64,000 nucleotides of DNA from an uncultured Acidobacteriota bacterium (GCA_963705525.1 CAVPJW010000007.1:184355-248354), one strand, 5' to 3'; counted from the stretch's first letter, positions 4,407 to 16,040 are shown. The notes: generated from the sequence alone by a model not told the origin. A program made the numbers and translations.

Positions 4407-5363
4407 GTGCCCGCCCTCGCGGCCTGTCTCCTTGCGCCACTCATCGGCTCGACGCACATCAGCTTGTGGCGTGTCGTCGATCGATCGATTGCGATCAGCG
4501 ACAACGTGGACGCGCAGATTTTCTTCGTGGCGCGCCTGCCGCGGGTGCTTGCGGCGGCGCTCGTCGGAGCGGCGCTGGCCGCGGCGGGAGTCGTGTTTCA
4601 GGCGCTTCTCCGAAACCCTCTTGCGACGCCGTTCACGTTGGGCGTGTCGGCCGGAGCGTCGCTCGGAGCCATGCTGGCGATTACCTTCAACCTCGACGTC
4701 TCATTCGGCGAGCTATCGGCCGTGCCCATCGCCAGTTTCGCCGGCGCGCTCGGCGCGGTCGCGATTGTCTATGCCCTTGCGCGGGCGCGACATCAGGGCA
4801 TATCCACGACGGTGCTCCTTCTGGCGGGAGTCACGCTCAACGCGTTCTTTTCGGCCATCATCATCTTCGTGCAGTACTTTGCCGATTTCTCGCAGACCTT
4901 CCGCACGGTCCGCTGGCTGATGGGTGACCTCGACGTGGCCGGTTATACGCCGATCGTCGCCGCGCTGCCCTTCACCGCGGTGGCATTCATCGCCTTCGGT
5001 GTCCTCCCGAGGGCGCTCAATCTGATGAGCCTGGGCACTGATGCCGCGGCCACACGCGGCATTGACGTGGTGAACACGCAGCGCTTGGCGTTCTTCAGCG
5101 CTTCGCTGGCCACGGGTGCCGCTGTTTCGCTCGGCGGGCCGATCGGGTTTGTGGGCATCATCGTTCCTCATCTCGTGCGCCTGCTGGTCGGATCCGATCA
5201 TCGCCTCGTGCTGCCGGCCTCGCTTCTCTTCGGTGCAACGTTTCTGATTGGCTGCGACGTGCTCTCTCGCACGCTCATGCCACCACTCGAGCTCCCGATT
5301 GGCGTTCTCACCGCGTTGATCGGCGGACCATTCTTCATCTGGCTGCTCGTCCGACGGGGCTGA
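4407..5363 (+). CDS. btuC: FecCD/BtuC-family ABC transporter permease
   Basis: ORF 4407..5363 starts at a GTG. Typical FecCD motifs are present: RLPRVLAAALVGAALAAAGVVFQALLRNPLA.P..LGVSAGASLG and GPIGFVGIIVPHLVRLLVG.DHR. The frame is open from 4362 and encodes more of TM1 (RLFVTVLAFGVPALAA). The real start may therefore be upstream at a non-canonical codon such as the CTG at 4380. Confidence 0.85.
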   Translation: MPALAACLLAPLIGSTHISLWRVVDRSIAISDNVDAQIFFVARLPRVLAAALVGAALAAAGVVFQALLRNPLATPFTLGVSAGASLGAMLAITFNLDVSFGELSAVPIASFAGALGAVAIVYALARARHQGISTTVLLLAGVTLNAFFSAIIIFVQYFADFSQTFRTVRWLMGDLDVAGYTPIVAALPFTAVAFIAFGVLPRALNLMSLGTDAAATRGIDVVNTQRLAFFSASLATGAAVSLGGPIGFVGIIVPHLVRLLVGSDHRLVLPASLLFGATFLIGCDVLSRTLMPPLELPIGVLTALIGGPFFIWLLVRRG

Positions 5364-6233: not shown

Positions 6234-7067
6234 ATGGACCCGTACCCTGAGCGCATCGTCTGCCTGACGGAAGAGACGACCGAGACTCTGTATCTGCTTG
6301 GACAGGGCCATCGGATCGTCGGGGTGTCGGGGTATACGGTCCGGCCGCCGGAAGCCCGCTCCAAGCCCAGGGTGTCGGCGTTCATCAACGCGCGGTTCGA
6401 GAAGATTGAGGCGCTCCAGCCGGATCTCATTCTGGGCTTCTCCGATCTGCAAGCAGACATCGGAGCGGAGCTGGTCAGACGCGGATGGCCGGTCGTCATT
6501 TTCAACCAGCGCAGTGTCGCGGAGATATTGCAGACGATCAGGATGATTGGCGGGCTCGTCGGGAGCGAGGCCGGCGCCGATAGACTCGCGACCACTCTCG
6601 AACGCGACCTTGACGCGATTCGCCAGAGTGCAGCGCGATTTCCTCGAAGACCGAGGACATTCTTCGAAGAGTGGAACGACCCGCTCATTTCCGGCATTCA
6701 CTGGGTGGAGGAGCTCGTCGAAGTCGCCGGTGGAGCGCCGCTCTTCCCTGAGCTTCGAGGTCAGAAACTGGCGAAGGATCGCATCGTCTCAATCTCGGCG
6801 GTGGCCGAGCGCGATCCCGACGTCGTCATCGCATCGTGGTGCGGAAAAGCGGTGCGGAAGAGCGCGATCGTCTCAAGACCAGGGTGGGCCGATGTCACCG
6901 CCGTCCGGGACGGATCCGTCTTCGAAATCAAGTCGACCTACATCCTGCAGCCGGGCCCTGCTGCGCTGACCGAGGGCATTCGCCAGCTTCACGCGATCCT
7001 CTCGCGCGTTGTCGGCCTACCGATCGACCCAGATCTGATGCCGACCGAACGAATGGACGGGGGATGA
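6234..7067 (+). CDS. Second BtuF/PF01497-like binding protein lacking any signal peptide
   Basis: ORF 6147..7067. The ATG at 6234 gives MDPYPERIVCLTEETTETLYLLGQGHRIVGVSGY...LQPDLILGF...DPDVVIASWCG. This is the same fold family as the preceding gene but has no hydrophobic N-terminus. Confidence 0.7.
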   Translation: MDPYPERIVCLTEETTETLYLLGQGHRIVGVSGYTVRPPEARSKPRVSAFINARFEKIEALQPDLILGFSDLQADIGAELVRRGWPVVIFNQRSVAEILQTIRMIGGLVGSEAGADRLATTLERDLDAIRQSAARFPRRPRTFFEEWNDPLISGIHWVEELVEVAGGAPLFPELRGQKLAKDRIVSISAVAERDPDVVIASWCGKAVRKSAIVSRPGWADVTAVRDGSVFEIKSTYILQPGPAALTEGIRQLHAILSRVVGLPIDPDLMPTERMDGG

Positions 7068-7079
7068 GGTAGGTCATCA

Positions 7080-7099
7080 GGTCCTGTTGGTGCAGGACC
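7080..7099. terminator. Hairpin between convergent genes (GGTCCTG-ttggtg-CAGGACC)
   Basis: A 7-bp perfect stem read from the sequence, located between stop 7067 (+) and stop 7124 (-). There is no U tract, so function as an intrinsic terminator is uncertain. Confidence 0.3.
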
Positions 7100-7123
7100 A
7101 GAAGGACGATTCTTCGTCTCGCC

Positions 7124-7957
7124 CTACTCCGCGAATTCGACGTGAGGCTTGTGCGGAATGATTCGCCGCTGATACGCCTCGCCGAGGAGGACGCGGACGG
7201 CCGTCCTTCCGCGCTCACCGTACGCCATCGTCAGATCGTTCACGTACATCCCGACGAACCGATCGGCGCGCTGGCGATCGAGCCCGCGTCCGAACTTCAT
7301 GGCGTAGTCGAGCGCTTCGCTCCTGTGCGAGAGTCCGTATGCAATGCTGTCGCGCAGCAGCGATGACACTCTGGTGATCGTTCCTGTCCCAAGGTCGCGC
7401 CGGATCACGTTGCCGCCGAGCGGCAATGGAAGCCCTCCCGTGCGATCCGACCACCATTCGCCCAGATCGACGATCTTGAAAAGACCTTCCTGCTGGTACG
7501 TCAGCTGCCCTTCGTGGATGAGCAGGCCGGCATCGACTTCGCCCCCATGCACGGCCTCCTGGATCTTGTCGAACGGCATGACCACGCAGTCGGCGTTCGG
7601 TTCGTACAGCTGAAGCGCCAGATAGGCGGTCGTCAACTTGCCAGGGATGGCCACCTTGATTCCTTGAAGAGATCTCGGGCTCTCCTTCCTGGCGACGACG
7701 ACCGGGCCATAGCGATCGCCCATGCTCGCACCGTGCGGAAGCAGCACATATCGATCCGTCAGATGTGCGTAGGCGTGGAACGAGACGGCGCTCACTTCGT
7801 ACTTGCCTTCGAATGCCGAGCGATTGAGCGTTTCGATGTCCGACAGGACGTGCTCGATGTCGATGTCGCCGGTCGGCACGGCGCCGCTGGCCAGGCCGTA
7901 GAACATGAACGCGTCATCTGAATCTGGACTGTGAGCGATGGCAATATGCATGGTCAC
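7124..7957 (-). CDS. mqnD: MqnA/MqnD-family protein, most like 1,4-dihydroxy-6-naphthoate synthase (futalosine menaquinone pathway)
   Basis: N-terminus IAIAHSPDSDDAFMFYGLASG (compare SPCPNDTF.FYAL in MqnD). Also present: DIETLNRSAFEG, KLTTAYLAL, GLLIHEGQLTY, VDLGEWWSDRTGGLPLPLGG. The pattern was recognised from memory of the PF02621 family. Confidence 0.6.
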   Translation of the reverse strand: MTMHIAIAHSPDSDDAFMFYGLASGAVPTGDIDIEHVLSDIETLNRSAFEGKYEVSAVSFHAYAHLTDRYVLLPHGASMGDRYGPVVVARKESPRSLQGIKVAIPGKLTTAYLALQLYEPNADCVVMPFDKIQEAVHGGEVDAGLLIHEGQLTYQQEGLFKIVDLGEWWSDRTGGLPLPLGGNVIRRDLGTGTITRVSSLLRDSIAYGLSHRSEALDYAMKFGRGLDRQRADRFVGMYVNDLTMAYGERGRTAVRVLLGEAYQRRIIPHKPHVEFAE

Positions 7958-8457
7958 ACGTCGTCGTTTTCGGGCCGCGCGTACGGGGTGGACGCACGCT
8001 TGACGACGATGGTCAGGCCGAAGAGGACGAGGACGATGGAGGCCGCGAAGCCTACGTAGATGCCGGAACCCACCGCGGTGGTTGGAACGGCAGGCGCTTC
8101 GACATTATCGACAATCGCCAGGGCCTGTGAACGAGCCCAGGCGTGCTGGAGCGCAGAGCGCTCCATCCACTGATATGCGAGCAGGAAGATCCCAAGCGCC
8201 ACGAGACCGACGAGCAACAGAGGATGCCGCGAGTTCTTGTGCGTGTAAATGCTCAGAGACGCCAGGATGACAGCCGAAGCCCCCAGCCCGAGAATCCACA
8301 GACCGGCAAGATCCGGAACACCCCCGATGGCGATGTCCCCGACGAGCACCCACGGCATGAACGCGCTGACAATCAGAACGATACCCGCAACCAGCGCAAC
8401 GTAGTACGGCCGCATGCTGTGGCAAACGGCGGCGATCGCGACCGAACGCAGGGTCAT
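7954..8457 (-). CDS. Hypothetical integral membrane protein (4-5 TM)
   Basis: The ORF has several long hydrophobic segments (YYVALVAGIVLIVSAFMPWVLV, LWILGLGASAVILASL, LLLVGLVALGIFLLAY, IYVGFAASIVLVLFGLTIVV). Its stop overlaps the mqnD-like start by 4 nt. Confidence 0.6.
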   Translation of the reverse strand: MTLRSVAIAAVCHSMRPYYVALVAGIVLIVSAFMPWVLVGDIAIGGVPDLAGLWILGLGASAVILASLSIYTHKNSRHPLLLVGLVALGIFLLAYQWMERSALQHAWARSQALAIVDNVEAPAVPTTAVGSGIYVGFAASIVLVLFGLTIVVKRASTPYARPENDDV

Positions 8458-8500
8458 CGGTCGGAAGTGTACTACAAGGGTAGGAGCGCGGAAGGCGGCG

Positions 8501-8905
8501 CTACCGTGAGGCCTTCGAGGTGAGCCACGCGATCAGTCCGCTGATATCCATGACGGGCGCCTTGAATTCGAGCGGCGTCATCATGTCCAGCATGTCGCGG
8601 TGCGTTGGCGCTGACATCGGGACCGGACCTGAAATGGTGTCGAACCCTGTAAAGAAATCGATGCGCGGCGCGGTGCCGTACACCTGGATGTAGTACTCGA
8701 GTTTCAAGCCGCTGATGTTGGTGGTCGCCGGAGCCGTGGCGAGTTTCTTCTGGATCCGATCGAGCGAGATGGGGAGTTTGTCGACGGCGATGGTCGTCGC
8801 CTTTTCGGCGGCTCGAGGTGGATCCGGCACCTGGTCAGGCGGATGGTCCTGCGCCCGAACGACCGATGCCGCGAGGAGGACGAAAGCGATGGCCAACCCC
8901 GCCAT
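8501..8905 (-). CDS. Secreted hypothetical protein
   Basis: This is the internal ATG of ORF 8501..9268. MAGLAIAFVLLAASVVRAQD is a Sec signal with an A-Q cleavage context. The upstream part of the long ORF is Arg/Cys-rich and overlaps iscU, so I regard it as non-coding. Confidence 0.5.
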   Translation of the reverse strand: MAGLAIAFVLLAASVVRAQDHPPDQVPDPPRAAEKATTIAVDKLPISLDRIQKKLATAPATTNISGLKLEYYIQVYGTAPRIDFFTGFDTISGPVPMSAPTHRDMLDMMTPLEFKAPVMDISGLIAWLTSKASR

Positions 8906-8976
8906 GGAATTCTCACAGGATCTGACGGTGGCCACTCGAAAAGAGCCGTGCCGGCACGATTCCGACATCCAGACGC

Positions 8977-9387
8977 TCACGGCCGCGCCCTTCGCGATGA
9001 CCTCGCTCTGTATGAGCTGACCATCGCACGCACGGCATCGCTTGCCAGGTCGGCGCAGTGCAACTGCTCGACCGTCAGCTCGAGCGCTTCGATGACGGTC
9101 CGAGACTCGAATGCGGCCGCCTGCTCGACCGTTCGGCCGCTCAGCCAGTCGGTCACAAAACTGGCACTTGCAATCGCCGCACCACAACCGAAGACCTTGA
9201 ATCGCATCTCCCGGATACGATTGTCCGCCGCATCGATCCTGGCCTGCAGGCGCATCTGGTCGCCGCAATCGCCGCCTCGGGCTGTAACGGTGATCACATC
9301 CCTGTCTTTGGCGGGCAAGCTCCCGACATTTCGCGGGTGCTCATAGTGGTCGCGCAGCGTGTCTGAATACCGAGACGCCGTCTTCAT
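8977..9387 (-). CDS. iscU: Fe-S cluster scaffold IscU/NifU N-terminal family
   Basis: This is the internal ATG of ORF 8977..9612 (MKTASRYSDTLRDHYEHPRNVG). The three scaffold cysteines are in GDCGDQMRL, FGCGAAIASAS and LHCADLASDAV. The start overlaps the iscS stop by 4 nt. Confidence 0.85.
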   Translation of the reverse strand: MKTASRYSDTLRDHYEHPRNVGSLPAKDRDVITVTARGGDCGDQMRLQARIDAADNRIREMRFKVFGCGAAIASASFVTDWLSGRTVEQAAAFESRTVIEALELTVEQLHCADLASDAVRAMVSSYRARSSRRARP

Positions 9388-10595
9388 CGGTCCAGAGACC
9401 AGTCTGACACGGATTCGTCCGCCTCCTTCTCGACGAGCGGTGAAATCTCGCGCAAACGCGACACGAGCGCGATGAGGCGATCGGCCACGTGGTCGATCTC
9501 CTCTTCCGTGTTGAATCGTCCCAGTCCGAACCGAATCGACGATCGGGCCTGCTCGTCGCTGAGACCCATGGCCTTGAGCACGTACGACGGTTCGGGGCTC
9601 GCCGACATGCATGCCGATCCGGTTGACACGGCGACACCGGTCAGCCCCATCAGGATGGATGAGGCATCGACACCGCGAAAACTGATGTTGAGATTCTGAG
9701 GCAGCCGGGCCTTCATCGATCCGTTGACGATGGCATCGGGTACGCCGAGGGACAATCGCGCGTGCAGGCGGTCGCGTAGACGCGCGAGCCTCGCTCGCTC
9801 ATCGGCTTTCTCTTCAATCGACAGTTCGGCCGCACGCCCGAACCCGACGATCCCGGGCACGTTCAACGTTCCCGAGCGTACGCCGTGTTCGTGCCCACCT
9901 CCGTCGATGATTGGATCGAGCACGATTCGTGGCTGCCGTCGCCTCACACAAAGCGCGCCGACTCCTTTGGGTCCATAGATCTTATGAGCCGTCAACGACA
10001 TCAGATCGGCCTGAAGCGCCTGAAGATCGACTGGAAGCGTGCCCACGGCCTGCACGGCATCCGTGTGGAACAGGATGCCACGCTCTTGTGCGAGCTTTCC
10101 GATCTCGCCAATAGGTTGAATCACGCCGGTTTCGTTGTGCGCCATCATCACGCTGATAAGCAGCGTCGAGTCGCACAGCGCATCGGTCAACCGGTCCAGA
10201 TCGATCAAACCGTCGGACCCGACGGGCAGGTACGTGACGCGGCATCCTTCCCGTTCGAGTCGCCGGCACGTGTCGAGCACCGCCCGATGTTCGGTCGCGA
10301 CCGTCACGACATGACGATCGCCGTCGCGCGCTCGAACGACGCCCTTGATCGCCAGGTTGTCGGACTCAGTCGCGCCGCTCGTGAAGACAATGTCCCGCGC
10401 GCGGGCGCCGACGAGCGACGCCACTTGCTCGCGGGCCTTCTCGACGGCGTCGCGCGCCTGCCAGCCGTATTCGTGCGCACGACTCGCCGCATTGCCGAAC
10501 CGCTCGCCGAAGTACGGGAGCATGGCGTCCAGCACGCGCGGATCGACCGGCGTGGTGGCGTGATGATCCAGATAGATGCGGGCAGGTTGTCGCAC
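9384..10595 (-). CDS. iscS: Cysteine desulfurase (class V aminotransferase, IscS/NifS type)
   Basis: IYLDHHATTPVDPRVLDAMLPY, FTSGATESDNLAIKG, SLTAHKIYGPKGVGAL (PLP lysine), and SGSACMS near the C-terminus (active-site Cys loop). Confidence 0.9.
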   Translation of the reverse strand: MRQPARIYLDHHATTPVDPRVLDAMLPYFGERFGNAASRAHEYGWQARDAVEKAREQVASLVGARARDIVFTSGATESDNLAIKGVVRARDGDRHVVTVATEHRAVLDTCRRLEREGCRVTYLPVGSDGLIDLDRLTDALCDSTLLISVMMAHNETGVIQPIGEIGKLAQERGILFHTDAVQAVGTLPVDLQALQADLMSLTAHKIYGPKGVGALCVRRRQPRIVLDPIIDGGGHEHGVRSGTLNVPGIVGFGRAAELSIEEKADERARLARLRDRLHARLSLGVPDAIVNGSMKARLPQNLNISFRGVDASSILMGLTGVAVSTGSACMSASPEPSYVLKAMGLSDEQARSSIRFGLGRFNTEEEIDHVADRLIALVSRLREISPLVEKEADESVSDWSLDR

Positions 10596-10608
10596 GGTGC
10601 GACCTCGT

Positions 10609-11064
10609 TCAGAGTTGCGGCTGAACGGTGGCTCGAGACACCGGGACGATGTGTGCGGCTGGTCGGTCAGACGCCAGTTCGGCGATGGAGCACGACTCGA
10701 GCGCCTGAATGATGCGTTCCCTCACGCGCCAGAGCGGGTCCCTCACGTTGCATTTCGAATATTGGTCGCAGCTCGGATCCTCGTTCGAGCAGGCGGTGAC
10801 GGTCAGCGGGCCGTCAATCGCCTGGACGACGTCGGCGATCGAGATGCGAGTGGCCGGTCTGGCCAGCTGGTAGCCGCCGCGCGTGCCTTGCTGCGATTGG
10901 AGGAGGCCCTTGTGCACCAGCCGCTGGAGTACCTTGGCCATCAGCTCGGTGGGAATGTCGAACTGGCCGGCAATCTCGCGGGCGCTGGACGCCTGATCGC
11001 GTCTCAGCGTGAGATGCTTCATGGCAATCAGCGCGTAATCGGCCTTCTTGGATAGCCTCAGCAT
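10609..11064 (-). CDS. iscR: Rrf2-family transcriptional regulator (IscR-like)
   Basis: MLRLSKKADYALIAMKHLT... is a typical Rrf2 wHTH. The Cys-containing region (TACSNEDPSCDQYSKCNV) is compatible with Fe-S ligation. It lies directly upstream of iscS-iscU. Confidence 0.8.
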   Translation of the reverse strand: MLRLSKKADYALIAMKHLTLRRDQASSAREIAGQFDIPTELMAKVLQRLVHKGLLQSQQGTRGGYQLARPATRISIADVVQAIDGPLTVTACSNEDPSCDQYSKCNVRDPLWRVRERIIQALESCSIAELASDRPAAHIVPVSRATVQPQL

Positions 11065-11135
11065 GCGCCTGAACTCGCCTGAGCTCGGACGTACTGTAGC
11101 GACCTATACCCGCAAAGTAAAGAACGGTCGCGCGC

Positions 11136-12575
11136 TCAGTATCTGGGCTGACTCGGATCGATCTTGTCCACCCAGTCGACGATGCCGCCCTTCAGGTTTC
11201 TCGCCTTACCGAACCCCGCCGACCGCAGGAACTCCACCGCCCTGGCGCTCCGCACACCCGACTTGCAGTGCACGACCAGCTCGCGGGCGCTGTCGAGCTC
11301 GTGCGCGCGCTGCGGAAGATCGCCGAGCGGGATCAGGACCGATCCCGGAATGCGGTTGATCTGATACTCCTGTGGCTCCCGAACGTCCAGAATGAGGGGA
11401 CGCTCTCCGCGATCGAGCCGTTCATTCAGCTCCTGGACGGTAATCTCGGGGACACCCGAGTGTGAATCGCTGGCCACGGCAGGTCCGACACCGCAAAACT
11501 GATCGTAGTCGATCAGGGCCCGGACCGTCGGATGCGTTCCGCACACGGGGCAGTCCGGATCCTTCCTGAGCTTCAGCTCGCGGAACTTCATCCTCAGGGC
11601 GTCAAAGATCAGAAAGCGACCGATGAGAGGCTCGCCCGAACCGATGATGAGCTTGATCGCCTCCGTCGCCTGGATCGTGCCAATGATGCCGGGCAGCACA
11701 CCGAGCACCCCACCCTCCGCGCAACTCGGCACCAGCCCTGGCGGCGGCGGCTCGGGATAGAGACAGCGGTAGCACGGACCTTCCTTCGTCGCAAAGACGG
11801 ACGCCTGCCCCTCGAATCGGAAGATGCTGCCGTACACGTTCGGCTTGCCCAGGAGCACGCACGCATCGTTGACGAGATACCGCGTCGGGAAATTGTCGGT
11901 ACCGTCCACGACGATGTCGTAATGAGAGAGGAGGTCGAGGGCATTCGCCGAGCTGAGCGCGACCTCGTGCGTTTCGATCCGGATCTCCGGATTGATGGAG
12001 TTCAGCCGATCCTTGGCGGACGCCAGCTTCGGCCGGCCCACGTCGGACGTTCCATGCAGAATCTGACGCTGCAGGTTGCTGAAGTCCACAGTGTCGAAAT
12101 CCACGATGCCAAGCGTGCCGACACCCGCGGCGGCGAGATAAAGCCCGACCGGCGATCCGAGCCCGCCGGCGCCGATGCAGAGGACGCGCGCCGCCTTCAG
12201 CTTGCGCTGCCCGTCCATGCCGACCTCGGGCATGATCAGGTGCCGGCTGTAGCGCTTCACCTCGTCCTTCGACAGCGTCGGGAGCTCCGCTTCAGCGACC
12301 GCACCACCCGCGACCGACGGGATGATGCTGATCGTGTCGCCGGGACTGACTGCCGTCTGCTCCTTGTCCAGGTACCGGATGTCTTCGTCGTTCAGATACA
12401 CGTTGACAAAGCTGCGAAGACGTCCCTGATCGGTGAAGAGATGTTGCCGGAGCCCGCCATACTCCTTCGTGAGGTTCGAGAGCAGCTCGCCGACGGTCGT
12501 CCCTTCGACGTCGACGCTCTCCTTCTTGCCGGTGAACGGCCTGAGCGGTGTGGGAATGAGAACTTTGCTCGCCAC
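11136..12575 (-). CDS. Tri-domain fusion: MoaD/ThiS/CysO-like ubiquitin-fold carrier (res 1-91, ends VAGG), MoeB/MoeZ-type E1 adenylyltransferase, and C-terminal rhodanese
   Basis: N-terminus: MASKVLIPTPLRPFTGKKESVDVEG..VGELL...VNVYLNDEDIRYL....VSPGDTISIIPSVAGG (Gly90-Gly91 encoded at 12303-12308, with no stop after them). Then KRYSRHLIMPEVG..GQRKLKAARVLCIGAGGLGSP (E1 Rossmann), CYRCLYPEPPPPGLVPSCAEGGVLG plus CPVCG (Zn site), and the rhodanese loop HCKSGVRSARA. Confidence 0.85.
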   Translation of the reverse strand: MASKVLIPTPLRPFTGKKESVDVEGTTVGELLSNLTKEYGGLRQHLFTDQGRLRSFVNVYLNDEDIRYLDKEQTAVSPGDTISIIPSVAGGAVAEAELPTLSKDEVKRYSRHLIMPEVGMDGQRKLKAARVLCIGAGGLGSPVGLYLAAAGVGTLGIVDFDTVDFSNLQRQILHGTSDVGRPKLASAKDRLNSINPEIRIETHEVALSSANALDLLSHYDIVVDGTDNFPTRYLVNDACVLLGKPNVYGSIFRFEGQASVFATKEGPCYRCLYPEPPPPGLVPSCAEGGVLGVLPGIIGTIQATEAIKLIIGSGEPLIGRFLIFDALRMKFRELKLRKDPDCPVCGTHPTVRALIDYDQFCGVGPAVASDSHSGVPEITVQELNERLDRGERPLILDVREPQEYQINRIPGSVLIPLGDLPQRAHELDSARELVVHCKSGVRSARAVEFLRSAGFGKARNLKGGIVDWVDKIDPSQPRY

Positions 12576-12587
12576 GTCTGATCCTCG

Positions 12588-13013
12588 TCAGGAAGTGAGC
12601 GCCCTGAGGACGCGTTCATCAAATGCGGTCCGCCCGGGATTGAGCGACCATGCGGTCAGAACCTTCGGTTCGCCGCCTTCGATCCCCAGTATCAGATACA
12701 GGAATGACGGCCATGCGTGGTCCAGGTCGTACTGAGACGGTCGGGCCGGCGCATCCGGATGCGAATGATAGAAGCCAAGCAGGCTGAGCCCCGTTTCGGC
12801 CGCGCGCGCCTCTGCGCGCCGGTAGTCGGTCGTGCTCACCATGAAGCGGCGACGCGGACCTTCGTCCGTGGTATTGGGTAGCGCGAGCGCTAATTGCACG
12901 GCGGTGTCCAAGCCATACAGCGCGCCGCAGCACTCGTTGGGATACGTCTCCGCGGCGTGGCTGCGGATCGCGTCGGTCACCGCGCTCCCGATAAACACCA
13001 CGTCGTCGGCCAT
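12588..13013 (-). CDS. JAMM/MPN+ metalloprotease (Mec+/Mov34 family)
   Basis: YPNECCGAL (the Glu motif) and GFYHSHPDAPARPSQYDLDHA (H-S-H-x7-S-x2-D JAMM motif). 141 aa. It lies between cysM and the Ubl-E1 fusion. Confidence 0.85.
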   Translation of the reverse strand: MADDVVFIGSAVTDAIRSHAAETYPNECCGALYGLDTAVQLALALPNTTDEGPRRRFMVSTTDYRRAEARAAETGLSLLGFYHSHPDAPARPSQYDLDHAWPSFLYLILGIEGGEPKVLTAWSLNPGRTAFDERVLRALTS

Positions 13014-13967
13014 TCAGTTCACACCCCCGATGGTCGACCCTTCGGCTGGTTGTTCCCAGAACCGCTCGGACAAGTACTTCTCGCCGCCGTCGCAGAAGAT
13101 CGTCACGATGACGGCATTCCTGACCCGCGCGGCGAGCCGGAGCGTTGCGGCCAGGGCGGCGCCGCTCGAGATGCCGACCAGCAGCCCTTCGCCGACCGCC
13201 AGCCGACGCGTGAGCTCGTACGCCTCTTCGGTGCCGACGCGAATATCCTCGTCCGCGATCGTCGGATCGTAGATGCCCGGCACGATGGCCGACTCCATGT
13301 GCTTCAAGCCTTCGAGGCCATGAAGCGGCGAGTCGGGCTGGACTGAGACGAGCTCGATCCGAGGATCGTGCTCGCGAAGACGACGACCGACCCCGACGAA
13401 CGTTCCGCTGGTGCCGAGTCCTGCGACAAAATGGGTGATGCGACCGCCGGTCTGGTTGAGGATTTCCTGGCCGGTGGTGTCGTAGTGAGCTCGCCAGTTC
13501 GCGTCGTTGTTGTACTGGTCCGGATAAAAGTACCGATCGGGTTCGCTGGCAGCGAGCCGCCGCGCTTCGCGGATCGCCCCATCCGAGCCTTCGAGCGGAT
13601 TGGTGAATACCATTTCCGCACCGTACGCGCGCAGGATTCTCTTGCGCTCGGGCGTGACGTTGGAGGGAAGGCAGAGCGTGACCTTGTACCCGCGCGCTGC
13701 CCCGATCATCGCGTAGGCAATTCCGGTGTTGCCCGAGGTCGCATCGAGAATCACGCGATCGGGGGTCAGCGCACCCGCCCGCTCGCCTTCGACAATCATT
13801 CGGAACGCCGCGCGGTCCTTGACCGACCCTCCGGGATTCTGCCATTCCGCCTTCGCATAAAGCTCGACATTCTCGAGCGCGGTTTCGAACCCTCTGAGGC
13901 GAAGAAGTGGTGTATTTCCAATGAGTTCAAGGATTGAGGCGGTGGCCTCTGAAAAGGGCGGCGCCAC
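13014..13967 (-). CDS. cysM: Cysteine synthase B-type PLP enzyme (CysM/CysK family)
   Basis: GNTPLLRL, NPGGSVKDRAA (PLP lysine), TSGNTGIAYA, GLGTSGTFVGV, ISSGAAL. GTG start at 13967. The stop abuts the JAMM gene start. Confidence 0.88.
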   Translation of the reverse strand: MAPPFSEATASILELIGNTPLLRLRGFETALENVELYAKAEWQNPGGSVKDRAAFRMIVEGERAGALTPDRVILDATSGNTGIAYAMIGAARGYKVTLCLPSNVTPERKRILRAYGAEMVFTNPLEGSDGAIREARRLAASEPDRYFYPDQYNNDANWRAHYDTTGQEILNQTGGRITHFVAGLGTSGTFVGVGRRLREHDPRIELVSVQPDSPLHGLEGLKHMESAIVPGIYDPTIADEDIRVGTEEAYELTRRLAVGEGLLVGISSGAALAATLRLAARVRNAVIVTIFCDGGEKYLSERFWEQPAEGSTIGGVN

Positions 13968-14002
13968 GGTGTGTGACCATAAATACGACCGATTTAGTCC
14001 GA

Positions 14003-14030
14003 ATTATATCATCGCGGATGCGACTGTCAA
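14003..14030 (-). promoter_or_regulatory. Consensus sigma-70 promoter TTGACA-N16-TATAAT upstream of cysM
   Basis: The reverse complement of 14003-14030 reads TTGACAgtcgcatccgcgatgaTATAAT. The -10 ends about 35 nt upstream of the cysM GTG. A short inverted repeat (ctgtc aacgc gacag) overlaps the -35. Confidence 0.6.
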
Positions 14031-14115
14031 CGCGACAGACCGCTCGTCCCGTCCAGTGATCGGCTCTCTGACCTTTGACTCGTGCGCCGGTCGGCAGGAT
14101 CCCGTCGGTCGTCGT

Positions 14116-14841
14116 CTACTTGAGCGACGCCGTCAAGGTGACCGATGCGCGGACCTCGATCTCGCCGGCAACAATCGGCGGTGAGGGTGGCGGCCCCGGC
14201 GCGGCCTCGGCGGCCACCATGCGGAACTGTGGTCCCGGAATCGGCACGGCCACACCGGATTCCTGAATTCTCAGGATGCGATCCACGGTGCGGCCGGCAC
14301 CAGCGGCCGCGGCATCAGCGCGCGCCCGCGCGTCGGCGACCGCCCGCTTCAGCGCTTCTCGCTCCAGCGACTCACGGTCCCGCAGGTCGAATCGGACGTT
14401 CGTCGCGGCCGTCGCGCCCCCACTGGTCGCAGCTGCAATGACGTCTCCGGTGCGTTCCACTTGATCCACACGGACTTCAATCACATTTCTCGCGACGTAG
14501 CCGCGTGAAGTCTGCTTGCCGTTGACGTAGTCGAATTCCTGCTGCAGGTCGTACGCCGTCGTGCGGATGGCATCCTTCGGGACGTTGGCTTCTGCCAGCT
14601 TCTGCAGCACCGACGCCATGGACGCCGCGCTCGCCTTCTGCGCCTCCATCGGCATCCGGGCGGTCGCCTCGACCGAAATCGTCACGAACGCGCGATCGGG
14701 AGCAGCCTTGATCACGCCTTCGCCCGTCGTCACCACGGTTGGAACCGGCGAACTCGCGTCCTGCGCCGCCAGAACAACCTGAAAGCCCACGATCAGCGCG
14801 ATGGGAAGCGTCAATGCCGGAAGTCCTATCTGTTTGTTCAC
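14116..14841 (-). CDS. SIMPL/DUF541 domain periplasmic protein
   Basis: Signal peptide MNKQIGLPALTLPIALIVGFQVVLAAQ, then TTGEGVIKAAPDRAFVTISVEA..., YVARNVIEVRV and REALKRAVADARARADAAA, typical of SIMPL (oxidative-stress defence protein family). Confidence 0.75.
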   Translation of the reverse strand: MNKQIGLPALTLPIALIVGFQVVLAAQDASSPVPTVVTTGEGVIKAAPDRAFVTISVEATARMPMEAQKASAASMASVLQKLAEANVPKDAIRTTAYDLQQEFDYVNGKQTSRGYVARNVIEVRVDQVERTGDVIAAATSGGATAATNVRFDLRDRESLEREALKRAVADARARADAAAAGAGRTVDRILRIQESGVAVPIPGPQFRMVAAEAAPGPPPSPPIVAGEIEVRASVTLTASLK

Positions 14842-14984
14842 CTGTGGCCTCCTCTCTCGGTGGAGCGCGTCCCGCGCCGCCTGACGCGGAAGGGATCAGG
14901 AGTATAGCCGAGCATGTTGATGCTCAACCGGCCGAGCCATCGTAAACTTTCGCGGATGCATCCACGAGCAGTCGGAGGCACGTC

Positions 14985-16040
14985 ATGGCTTTAGCGGCGC
15001 TCGAACTCCGAATCGCCCTCGTCGGGTTTGGCAATGTCGCCCGCCGTTTCGTCCGCCTTCTCGACGAGCGCAAGGCCGAGCTCCAGGACCAGGAAGGGCT
15101 GAACTGCCGGATCGTCGGAATTTCCACGGGCCGCCATGGCCAGACCTTCTCGGAATCGGGCGTCGATGTCGCGGCAGCGCTCTCCAGCCGCGACGCAGGT
15201 CAGCCCTTGCCCTCCAGTGAGGCGCGTCAGGCCAGTTCGGTCGAGTTCATTCGCCATGCCTGTGGCCGGTGTCGAGATCTGGTCGTGATAGAAACCACGC
15301 CCCTCAACGTCAGGAATGGGCAGCCGGCGATTGATCACATCCGGACGGCGCTCGAGGGCGGCGCGGACGTCGTGACCGCGAACAAGGGGCCGGTGGCCTT
15401 CGCCTATCGCGAACTCCAGGCGCTGGCCGATCGACGAGGCCGCTCCTTCCTGTTCGAAGGCACGGTGATGGACGGCATTCCGATCTTCAACCTTGTTCGA
15501 GAGACTCTTCCGGCGGTGCAGATCACCGCGGTTCGAGGAGTGGTCAACAGCACGACCAACCACATCCTGACGGAAATGGAGCGCGGCAAGACCTTCCAAA
15601 CCGCGCTCAGCGAGATGCAGCAGGCCGGGATTGCCGAAGCCGATCCATCGCTCGACATCGAGGGCTGGGACGCAGCCGCGAAGATCGCCGCGCTCTCGAA
15701 CGTGCTCCTTGGCGGAAACGTGTCACCACAGAATGTGAGGCGAACGGGCATTTCGGGGATCTCGAACGACGATGTCAAACGGGCGATGGACCAAAACACT
15801 CGCATCCGCCTGGTGGCAGAGGCCGAACGCCGCGGCGGCACCGTCGTCGCGTGGGTCGAGCCCCGCGCGCTCACCCTCGACTCCCCGCTCGCGCACCTCG
15901 TGGGGCTGCAGAATGCGCTCATCCTGCGTACGGACCTGCTGGGCGAGATTGCGATCACGCAGCTCGACGGCGGGTTGACGCAGACGGCCTACGCGCTGCT
16001 GAGCGATCTGGTCCGCGTGGCGAGGCGGAGAAGGCATTGA
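14985..16040 (+). CDS. hom: Homoserine dehydrogenase family protein (no ACT domain)
   Basis: LRIALVGFGNVARRF (NAD-binding GxGxxG), VVTANKGPVA, and GIPIFNLVRETLPAVQITAVRGVVNSTTNHILTEM (catalytic domain pattern). Confidence 0.75.
   Translation: MALAALELRIALVGFGNVARRFVRLLDERKAELQDQEGLNCRIVGISTGRHGQTFSESGVDVAAALSSRDAGQPLPSSEARQASSVEFIRHACGRCRDLVVIETTPLNVRNGQPAIDHIRTALEGGADVVTANKGPVAFAYRELQALADRRGRSFLFEGTVMDGIPIFNLVRETLPAVQITAVRGVVNSTTNHILTEMERGKTFQTALSEMQQAGIAEADPSLDIEGWDAAAKIAALSNVLLGGNVSPQNVRRTGISGISNDDVKRAMDQNTRIRLVAEAERRGGTVVAWVEPRALTLDSPLAHLVGLQNALILRTDLLGEIAITQLDGGLTQTAYALLSDLVRVARRRRH

Follow-up and report, generated by a model that had tools for sequence, protein, structure and literature searches.

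A sulfur carrier, an E1 and a rhodanese in one chain

The DNA considered here, referred to below as the window, is a stretch of 64,000 nucleotides from an uncultured Acidobacteriota bacterium (GCA_963705525.1 CAVPJW010000007.1:184355-248354), with positions counted from its first letter. At 11136..13967 it carries three co-directional genes on the minus strand, which encode a CysM-type enzyme, a stand-alone JAMM metalloprotease and a 479-residue protein in which a ubiquitin-like (Ubl) sulfur-carrier domain is followed, in a single chain, by an E1 and a rhodanese. The JAMM gene begins 0 nucleotides after the CysM stop, and the fusion gene starts 12 nucleotides after the JAMM stop. The genes, as delineated in the open reading frame (ORF) listing, and the parts of the fusion are:

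13014..13967, minus strand: CysM/CysK-type cysteine synthase dependent on pyridoxal phosphate (PLP), 317 residues (ORF listing, Pfam PALP)
12588..13013, minus strand: stand-alone JAMM/MPN+ metalloprotease, 141 residues (ORF listing, Pfam Prok-JAB)
11136..12575, minus strand: fusion ORF, 479 residues with a GTG start, comprising carrier, linker, E1 and rhodanese (ORF listing, Pfam)
12303..12575, minus strand: CysO/ThiS/MoaD-type beta-grasp sulfur-carrier domain, residues 1-91, ending in IIPSVAGG (Pfam ThiS, 3dwg_C, AlphaFold2 model)
12303..12308, minus strand: GGT GGT, encoding Gly90-Gly91; the predicted cleavage bond is Gly91-Ala92 (sequence, conservation)
12276..12302, minus strand: linker AVAEAELPT, residues 92-100 (9 residues), unconserved in the alignment
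11490..12275, minus strand: MoeZ/MoeB/Uba4-type E1 adenylation domain, approximately residues 101-362 (Pfam ThiF)
11166..11441, minus strand: rhodanese domain, residues 379-470, with active-site Cys437 in HCKSGVRS (Pfam Rhodanese)

The domain order carrier-E1-rhodanese had been read from the DNA alone in an original prediction, which also named five Pfam families as a check (PF02597, PF00899, PF00581, PF14464 and PF00291); all five were recovered. On the fusion, ThiS (PF02597) covers residues 5-91 (E 2.6e-16; 60.4 bits against a cutoff of 22.5), ThiF (PF00899) residues 109-344 (E 2.8e-86) and Rhodanese (PF00581) residues 379-470 (E 1.1e-20). The ThiS/MoaD fold predicted for the N-terminal 91 residues agrees with their best solved-structure match, M. 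tuberculosis CysO in the CysM-CysO complex entry (3dwg_C, E 3.2e-19), and the AlphaFold2 model of the fusion gives residues 1-86 the secondary structure of a beta-grasp domain. This model is of moderate confidence overall, with a predicted local distance difference test (pLDDT) score of 75 and a predicted template modelling (pTM) score of 0.59; residues 87-96 have a pLDDT below 50, so that the junction is predicted to be flexible. Solved-structure matches to the E1 part are led by Uba4 (6yub) and include MoeB (1jw9). Among curated models, the fusion exceeds the cutoff for MoeB (NF006444, 485.3 against 449) and stays below those for MoeZ (NF005902, 539 against 647) and NF005646 (572.6 against 633), while the carrier domain scores just under the SAMP1 model cutoff (57.9 bits against 60). 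The anticipated pairs of zinc-coordinating cysteines and the rhodanese active site were located as CYRC at 268, CPVC at 342 and HCKSGVRS at 436, alongside RYSRH at 108 with the Arg finger, the nucleotide loop GAGGLG at 135-140 and SCAEGG at 284 with the conserved cysteine. Arg108, the GAGGLG motif, Cys268/271, Cys285, Cys342/345 and Cys437 are all invariant in an alignment of relatives (alignment A1).

At the junction between the carrier and the E1, the plus strand reads ACCACC at 12303-12308, the complement of the two glycine codons, and the next codon of the gene is GCG (Ala92), from which the frame stays open into AVAEAELPTLSKDEVKRYSRHLIM, just as had been claimed. A sulfur carrier of this type requires a free C-terminal carboxylate on its last glycine, and the gene product lacks one: 388 residues follow the Gly-Gly (GG). 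The peptide spanning the uncut junction is EQTAVSPGDTISIIPSVAGGAVAEAELPTLSK; a cut at Gly91-Ala92 would expose AVAEAELPTLSK as the new N-terminus and leave EQTAVSPGDTISIIPSVAGG as the carrier-side peptide.

The two upstream genes likewise encode what the original prediction had assigned to them. The 141-residue protein is matched by Prok-JAB (PF14464; E 1e-22, 80.6 bits against a cutoff of 25), has the complete JAMM motif E...HxHx7Sx2D (ECCG at 27, HSHPD at 83 and SQYD at 93, placing the motif residues at Glu27, His83, His85, Ser93 and Asp96) and has the MPN protein 2kcq_A as its best solved relative (E 1.5e-28); its match to a haloarchaeal desampylase model falls under the cutoff. The 317-residue protein is matched by PALP (PF00291, E 1.9e-70) and by TIGR01136 (cysKM; 355.6 bits, above the cutoff of 344.15), and displays the SVKDR motif at 48 with the PLP-binding Lys50 and the TSGNTG loop from residue 77. 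Its best solved relatives are the CysM proteins of Salmonella and E. coli (about 5e-74), with M. tuberculosis CysM at 1.5e-60. At the position of an arginine in E. coli CysM the window protein has a lysine (in GLKHM at 220), and Arg220 of M. tuberculosis CysM presumably aligns there too; since E. coli CysM also has arginine, the position does not distinguish O-phosphoserine from O-acetylserine as the substrate. The domain identities, the catalytic motifs and the layout of the operon are thus established.

Conservation of the fusion and of a masked Gly-Gly

Relatives were collected as two sets: the 120 best protein relatives (73-100% identity), drawn from ENA, JGI, NCBI and Logan assemblies, and, at the genome level, the best 80 of at least 595 species-representative loci encoding a relative. 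All 120 proteins combine PF02597, PF00899 and PF00581 in a single chain and keep P-S-V-A-G-G ahead of the E1, and the GG is invariant across both sets (80/80 loci and 120/120 proteins). A survey of fused against split genes, as had been suggested, gave 50 in-frame fusions and 30 split pairs among the 80 loci. These loci are mostly from Acidobacteriota (Vicinamibacteria, Bryobacterales, Terriglobales and Blastocatellia) and Gemmatimonadota, with the nearest ones, at 70-76% identity, from Vicinamibacteria/Acidobacteriota. The gene order CysM, JAB, carrier/E1 holds in nearly all of them, the JAB gene lying directly 5' of the carrier/E1. The same fusion, with [AS]GG before the E1, recurs in several separate clusters defined at 50% identity, down to 45% identity; the majority of MoeZ-like cluster representatives are unfused, with lengths of about 375-395 residues. 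Thus, the fusion is genuine and common in soil Acidobacteria.

There is next to no chance that the fusion is a sequencing or assembly error, with a stop codon lost or an indel introduced at 12295-12310. A single-base error might indeed mimic it, because some relatives have a stop 1-5 codons after the GG or an ATGA/GTGA overlap of the two genes. However, the same in-frame architecture is seen in 120/120 proteins and in 50/80 species-level genomes, across independent assemblies and with linkers that differ in sequence and length, and an artefact was dropped as an explanation on account of this conservation. A stop soon after the GG in relatives had been put forward as evidence that would overturn the fusion; such relatives do exist, in the form of the 30 split loci, yet they are natural split alleles rather than signs of an artefact.

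The comparison of fused and split forms bears on the fate of the carrier. Downstream of the invariant GG, the sequence is unconserved and variable in length (in alignment A1, the loci and the proteins alike): the segment from GG to RYSRH spans 16-33 residues in the fused loci measured and 14-47 in the 120 proteins. The residue immediately after the GG is mostly small: among the 49 fused loci classed, 48 have S, A, T or V there, and 96 of the 120 proteins have A or V. Parsimony on a neighbour-joining tree of the E1-rhodanese part requires at least nine changes between the fused and split states, and some split alleles differ from fused ones merely by an in-frame stop a few codons past the GG or by an ATGA/GTGA overlap. 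Fused and split forms therefore look functionally interchangeable, which implies that the carrier must end up free in both. The split carriers themselves are rarely naked: 29 of 30 have 1-32 residues beyond the GG, examples being R, MY, NGDR and CCPCGCCCCPR before the stop, and only one (L070) ends in GG. With the GG masked in this way, C-terminal processing would be required whether the carrier is fused or not, and the split relatives thereby strengthen the case for cleavage. In this operon family, then, a masked GG is the norm, and the E1 fusion is the most extreme of its C-terminal extensions.

Further architectures link the JAB domain to the fused carrier. Two single-chain polyproteins from NCBI assemblies incorporate the protease itself: P0145 (L081, 4001-5905; 634 residues) has the order JAB-ThiS-Rhodanese-ThiF, and P0149 (L082, 4001-5860; 619 residues) has the order JAB-Ubl-ThiF-Rhodanese and is followed by PALP and hexapeptide-repeat (Hexapep) genes. 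A third, P0127 (486 residues, also from an NCBI assembly), is a permuted ThiS-Rhodanese-ThiF protein, and in each of the three the carrier domain still closes with [AS]GG. The JAB gene also adjoins the fused gene in loci without CysM (L045 and L066), and in L056, from a metagenome-assembled genome (MAG) labelled 'archaeon', a MetY-type Cys_Met_Meta_PP gene (6467-7174) takes the place of CysM after the JAB and fused genes, which suggests a homocysteine/methionine version of the fused system. Persistence of the JAB gene beside the fusion with no CysM, or with a MetY-type enzyme, argues that its association with the carrier is not a mere by-product of CysM.

Several observations on individual relatives were made in passing. 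Eight contigs whose fusion gene is 58-72% identical (L006, L009, L017, L033, L047, L051, L056 and L066) have MAG labels at odds with it, among them Cyanobacteriota, Bifidobacteriaceae, Chitinophagaceae, Clostridia, Heliobacteriaceae, Acetobacteraceae and Thermoplasmata. Such labels suggest that the contigs were mis-binned or mislabelled, with lateral transfer as a further possibility. In the split loci of Terriglobia (L024, L025, L032, L049 and L074-L077) a mini-ORF rich in cysteine codons lies between the carrier GG, at about locus position 5270, and the start of the E1. Examples, each running to a stop codon, are a peptide ending in RRSACCCCCPCCCR, MKNNTNPRFARCCCPSCP and the CCPCGCCCCPR tail that follows the GG directly. 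Its frame varies, being that of the carrier tail after the GG, a different one, or one that lies past the stop codon, and the window has no counterpart. It has the look of a leader or attenuator peptide, internal to the operon, that senses cysteine. In L076 an IS110-family transposase (1450-2559) lies 5' of a split carrier/E1 pair that has neither JAB nor CysM as neighbours.

Proposed release of the carrier and competing explanations

We propose that the window encodes a three-gene cysteine operon of the CysO/CysM/Mec+/MoeZ type, whose carrier would be a pro-domain cut after Gly91 by the neighbouring JAMM protein, and we place the probability of this at roughly 0.7. A JAMM cut after Gly91 was also the inference favoured in the original prediction, and the comparative data make it the best-supported interpretation, drawing on the retained GG, the character of the linker, the repeated fusion and fission, the masked tails and the polyproteins. 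What we infer is that cleavage takes place, that the JAMM protein carries it out, where the sulfur comes from and which serine ester CysM takes.

The pathway would start from the promoter-like site at 14030..14003 with a single mRNA for all three proteins, the fusion among them having a mass of 52 kDa. The JAMM protein is predicted to recognise the beta-grasp domain together with its ...IIPSVAGG tail and to hydrolyse Gly91-Ala92 in the flexible linker, yielding two products: a carrier of about 9.9 kDa whose Gly-Gly carboxylate is free, and an E1-rhodanese of 42 kDa. The calculated masses are 9,952 Da for the carrier, or 9,821 Da if Met1 is lost, and 42,032 Da for the E1-rhodanese, which would start with AVAEAELPT. 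The subsequent steps are modelled on the established M. tuberculosis pathway for the Mec+-type enzyme. The E1 would adenylate the carrier at Gly91, and a persulfide on Cys437 of the rhodanese would turn the adenylate into the carrier thiocarboxylate. CysM could then add the thiocarboxylate sulfur to a PLP-bound aminoacrylate formed from O-phosphoserine or O-acetylserine, an S-to-N acyl shift would give carrier-Gly-Gly-Cys, and the same JAMM protein would finally free the cysteine and regenerate the carrier.

Several considerations weigh against this proposal. The case for cleavage is built on sequence comparison. A JAB protein is needed in any event to release cysteine from the carrier-cysteine adduct, so that its presence beside CysM is not specific to precursor processing, and the characterised CysO of M. 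tuberculosis has a naked GG end. Mec+-type enzymes are known to take off a single C-terminal residue; the removal of a 388-residue partner needs endopeptidase-type access, and this is known solely for other JAMM subfamilies. The window CysM scores 369.6 against TIGR01138, the CysM equivalog model, just under its cutoff of 394.2, and is slightly nearer to the enterobacterial enzymes, which makes its presumed partner and substrate tentative. Moreover, the window covers 64 kb of the genome, so that a free-standing carrier may be encoded elsewhere, and the 80 loci were picked by their similarity to a fused query, which biases both the ratio of fused to split forms and the inferred state at the root.

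The space beyond the window leaves room for the idea that the beta-grasp domain is never released and instead serves in cis, as a regulatory or decoy module seated in the carrier-binding site of the E1 or as a scaffold for CysM, while a free carrier encoded elsewhere does the work. A buried, adenylation-incompetent GG would suit a decoy, and Iyer et al. 2006 (PMC1779556) argued in this vein for different Ubl-ThiF fusions that lie beside a solo ThiS. However, a decoy would have no need of the GG, which is invariant in every fused protein examined, and close relatives encode the same domain as a separate gene that is the only carrier of the operon. The nine or more switches between fused and split forms point the same way, as does the lack of any solo ThiS/MoaD ORF, be it within the window or adjacent to the fusion in any of the 80 loci; a phmmer search for a second carrier or E1 among the window ORFs of at least 50 residues returned the fusion alone. 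An unreleased domain is accordingly improbable.

Release by other means fares little better. Cleavage after the GG might be due to another protease or be autocatalytic, with the JAMM protein acting solely on the carrier-cysteine adduct in the manner of Mec+; the role in cysteine release already accounts for a JAB gene, and the protease that cuts MoaX was left unidentified in PMC4326299. Against this stand the JAB genes that adjoin a fused carrier without CysM (L045 and L066), the covalent joining of JAB to the Ubl-E1 in P0145 and P0149, and the cleavage of linear Ubl fusions by related JAMM enzymes (PMC8832034). The masked GG of nearly all split carriers, furthermore, speaks for a dedicated processing enzyme that the system itself supplies, and we regard cleavage by such other means as unlikely.

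The product of the pathway could also be something other than cysteine: the thiocarboxylate might feed the synthesis of a thio-metabolite, tRNA thiolation or molybdopterin, or the carrier might be conjugated in the manner of SAMP/TtuB, with the JAMM protein as its deconjugase. The sub-cutoff matches of the carrier to SAMP1 and of the JAB protein to the desampylase model fit such a role. So does the fact that the fusion of some relatives is paired with a MetY-type enzyme or lacks a sulfhydrylase partner altogether, and mycobacterial MoeZ is reported to serve both cysteine and molybdopterin synthesis (PMC3227635). On the other side, CysM is encoded next to the fusion operon's JAMM gene in the window and CysM genes are neighbours in almost all 80 loci, and the best solved match of the carrier is the very CysO that is complexed with CysM in 3dwg. 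The ORFs and Pfam matches of the operon include no gene for MoaE, ThiG, NcsA/TtuA or an E2-like protein, and the cysteine-codon-rich mini-ORF of the Terriglobia operons fits regulation by cysteine. A purpose other than cysteine synthesis is thus a poor prospect for the window, though some relatives may have one.

An elaboration of the cleavage proposal, which we consider unlikely though worth stating, is that the uncleaved fusion is an autoinhibited zymogen of the whole pathway. The carrier would be pre-docked on the adenylation site of the partner chain in an E1 dimer, and cleavage by the JAMM protein would be the single switch, which may be under zinc or redox control and would produce the substrate and the active E1 at the same moment and in an exact 1:1 ratio. 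This idea draws on the shortness of the linker (9 residues) and on the MoeB-type dimers, in which the N-terminal Arg-finger helix of the E1 reaches into the neighbouring active site.

Two routes that would bypass proteolysis were considered and rejected. A -1 frameshift just past the GG would lead to GG-CGR-stop and a +1 frameshift to a tail of 15 residues; the sequence has no slippery heptamer, and the GG is masked either way. Internal initiation at the GTG of Val106, which has an AAGGA ahead of it, might supply the E1 in free form, though not the carrier. Neither, therefore, yields an unmasked carrier, and a protease would still be needed.

Relation to known systems and genomic surroundings

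The operon contains the same four activities as the CysO (Rv1335)/CysM (Rv1336)/Mec+ (Rv1334)/MoeZ (Rv3206c) system of M. tuberculosis, and corresponds to type 4c of Iyer et al. 2006 (PMC1779556). Whereas the M. tuberculosis carrier is a free protein of 93 residues ending in GG, with MoeZ encoded elsewhere, the window has the carrier fused to the E1 and everything in a single operon. It also lacks the ClpS and helical-protein genes of the actinobacterial version, and differs in the E1 falling below the MoeZ equivalog cutoff and in the slightly closer affinity of its CysM to the enterobacterial enzymes.

The processing principle, too, has precedents, and the novelty is less than the original prediction implied. 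Iyer, Burroughs and Aravind described operons of this type in 2006, with ThiS/MoaD, E1-rhodanese, JAB and cysteine synthase genes and an acidobacterium among those listed, and proposed that fused ThiS/MoaD domains are released by JAB (PMC1779556). Cleavage of MoaD-MoaE fusions at the GG is on record as well: M. tuberculosis MoaX needs to be cut at Gly82-Ser83 in order to function (PMC4326299), the D. radiodurans JAMM protein DR0402 cleaves the MoaD-MoaE fusion DR2607, and HvJAMM1 cleaves linear SAMP1 fusions (PMC8832034). Like MoaX, in which the post-GG cut is required, and DR2607, the window fusion has its GG carrier N-terminal to a partner enzyme, and its junction SVAGG-A shares the other features of these proteins, namely a GG at the junction, a small residue next to it and an encoded JAMM protein. 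The differences are that their partner is the sulfur acceptor MoaE of the molybdopterin pathway, whereas here it is the activating E1 of a cysteine pathway, and that the locus number of dr_0402 is far from that of DR2607, while the JAMM gene of the window is adjacent to that of its presumed substrate.

Shorter extensions are present on QbsE of the quinolobactin system and HcyS of homocysteine synthesis in Wolinella, which are reported by Godert and colleagues in 2007 and by Krishnamoorthy and Begley in 2011 to have 1-2 residues past the GG; QbsD and HcyD, the JAMM enzymes of those operons, trim them and so expose the GG. Those tails match the 1-32-residue tails on 29 of the 30 split relatives, whereas the extension in the window is an entire 388-residue E1-rhodanese. 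The Ubl-ThiF fusions of delta/epsilon-proteobacteria and Firmicutes (PMC1779556) are of a different kind: their Ubl is distinct from ThiS, lies beside a solo ThiS and without JAB, and has a proposed non-carrier role, whereas the window domain is the sole carrier of its operon, keeps its GG and alternates with a split gene. Among eukaryotic systems, polyubiquitin and the ubiquitin-ribosomal protein fusions offer a parallel in that a beta-grasp protein with a GG end is synthesised as part of a larger chain and needs a dedicated peptidase for its release, as proposed here, and Uba4 of the Uba4-Urm1 system shares the E1-rhodanese architecture. Unlike the window carrier, ubiquitin is not fused to its own E1, its processing falls mostly to deubiquitinases of the cysteine protease type, and the window operon has no E2/E3.

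No description of an operon of this kind in which a GG carrier forms one chain with its own E1-rhodanese was found in the literature searched, which did not extend to Burroughs et al. 2009 on the E1-like superfamily. What is known, then, is the pathway and the processing principle; what is new is that the E1 serves as the fusion partner, that the arrangement is widespread in soil phyla and that the family as a rule has its GG masked. If the JAMM protein cuts the fusion, one protease would act twice, freeing the carrier from the E1 and later cysteine from the carrier; JAMM-dependent precursor processing would extend from MoaD-MoaE to an E1 fusion, and a masked rather than naked GG would be the usual state of the carrier in the abundant soil phyla Acidobacteriota and Gemmatimonadota. 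The system offers a simple three-protein model for a bacterial maturation akin to that of ubiquitin precursors and, should the fusion be a zymogen, bacteria would have in it an equivalent of ubiquitin-precursor processing that serves to switch metabolism on. In databases, thousands of these genes bear no label beyond "MoeB" or "adenylyltransferase/sulfurtransferase", so that the carrier seems to be missing from these genomes.

Two candidate elements of transcription flank the operon:

14003..14030, minus strand: promoter-like site TTGACA-16 nucleotides-TATAAT with an extended -10 TG (consensus match alone)
11122..11137, minus strand: weak terminator-like hairpin with a 5-bp stem at the end of the fusion ORF (suggestive only)

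The promoter-like site matches the consensus at 12/12 positions, lies 36 nucleotides 5' of the cysM start codon and is the sole such site detected in 10500..14300; a 12/12 match to the sigma-70 consensus is unusually perfect for a GC-rich genome. The hairpin is merely suggestive, since terminator-like hairpins in the region are not more numerous than in shuffled sequence. An Rfam scan of 8000..16000 at E up to 0.1 gave zero matches, and thus no sign of an RNA element or riboswitch in or around the operon.

Just 5' of the operon promoter lies a SIMPL/DUF541 gene (14116..14841, minus strand), which is also found upstream in a few close relatives (L001, L006 and L007). Directly 3' on the same strand, within 8977..11064, the operon is followed by genes for an Rrf2-family regulator (11064..10609), an IscS/NifS-type cysteine desulfurase (10595..9384) and, after the latter, a NifU_N/IscU scaffold (within 9612..8977). 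Together they may form an ordinary iron-sulfur cluster (ISC) operon, or they may provide the persulfide of the rhodanese; the order Rrf2, IscS, NifU_N also trails the fusion in many loci of Vicinamibacteria, whereas more distant loci lack it.

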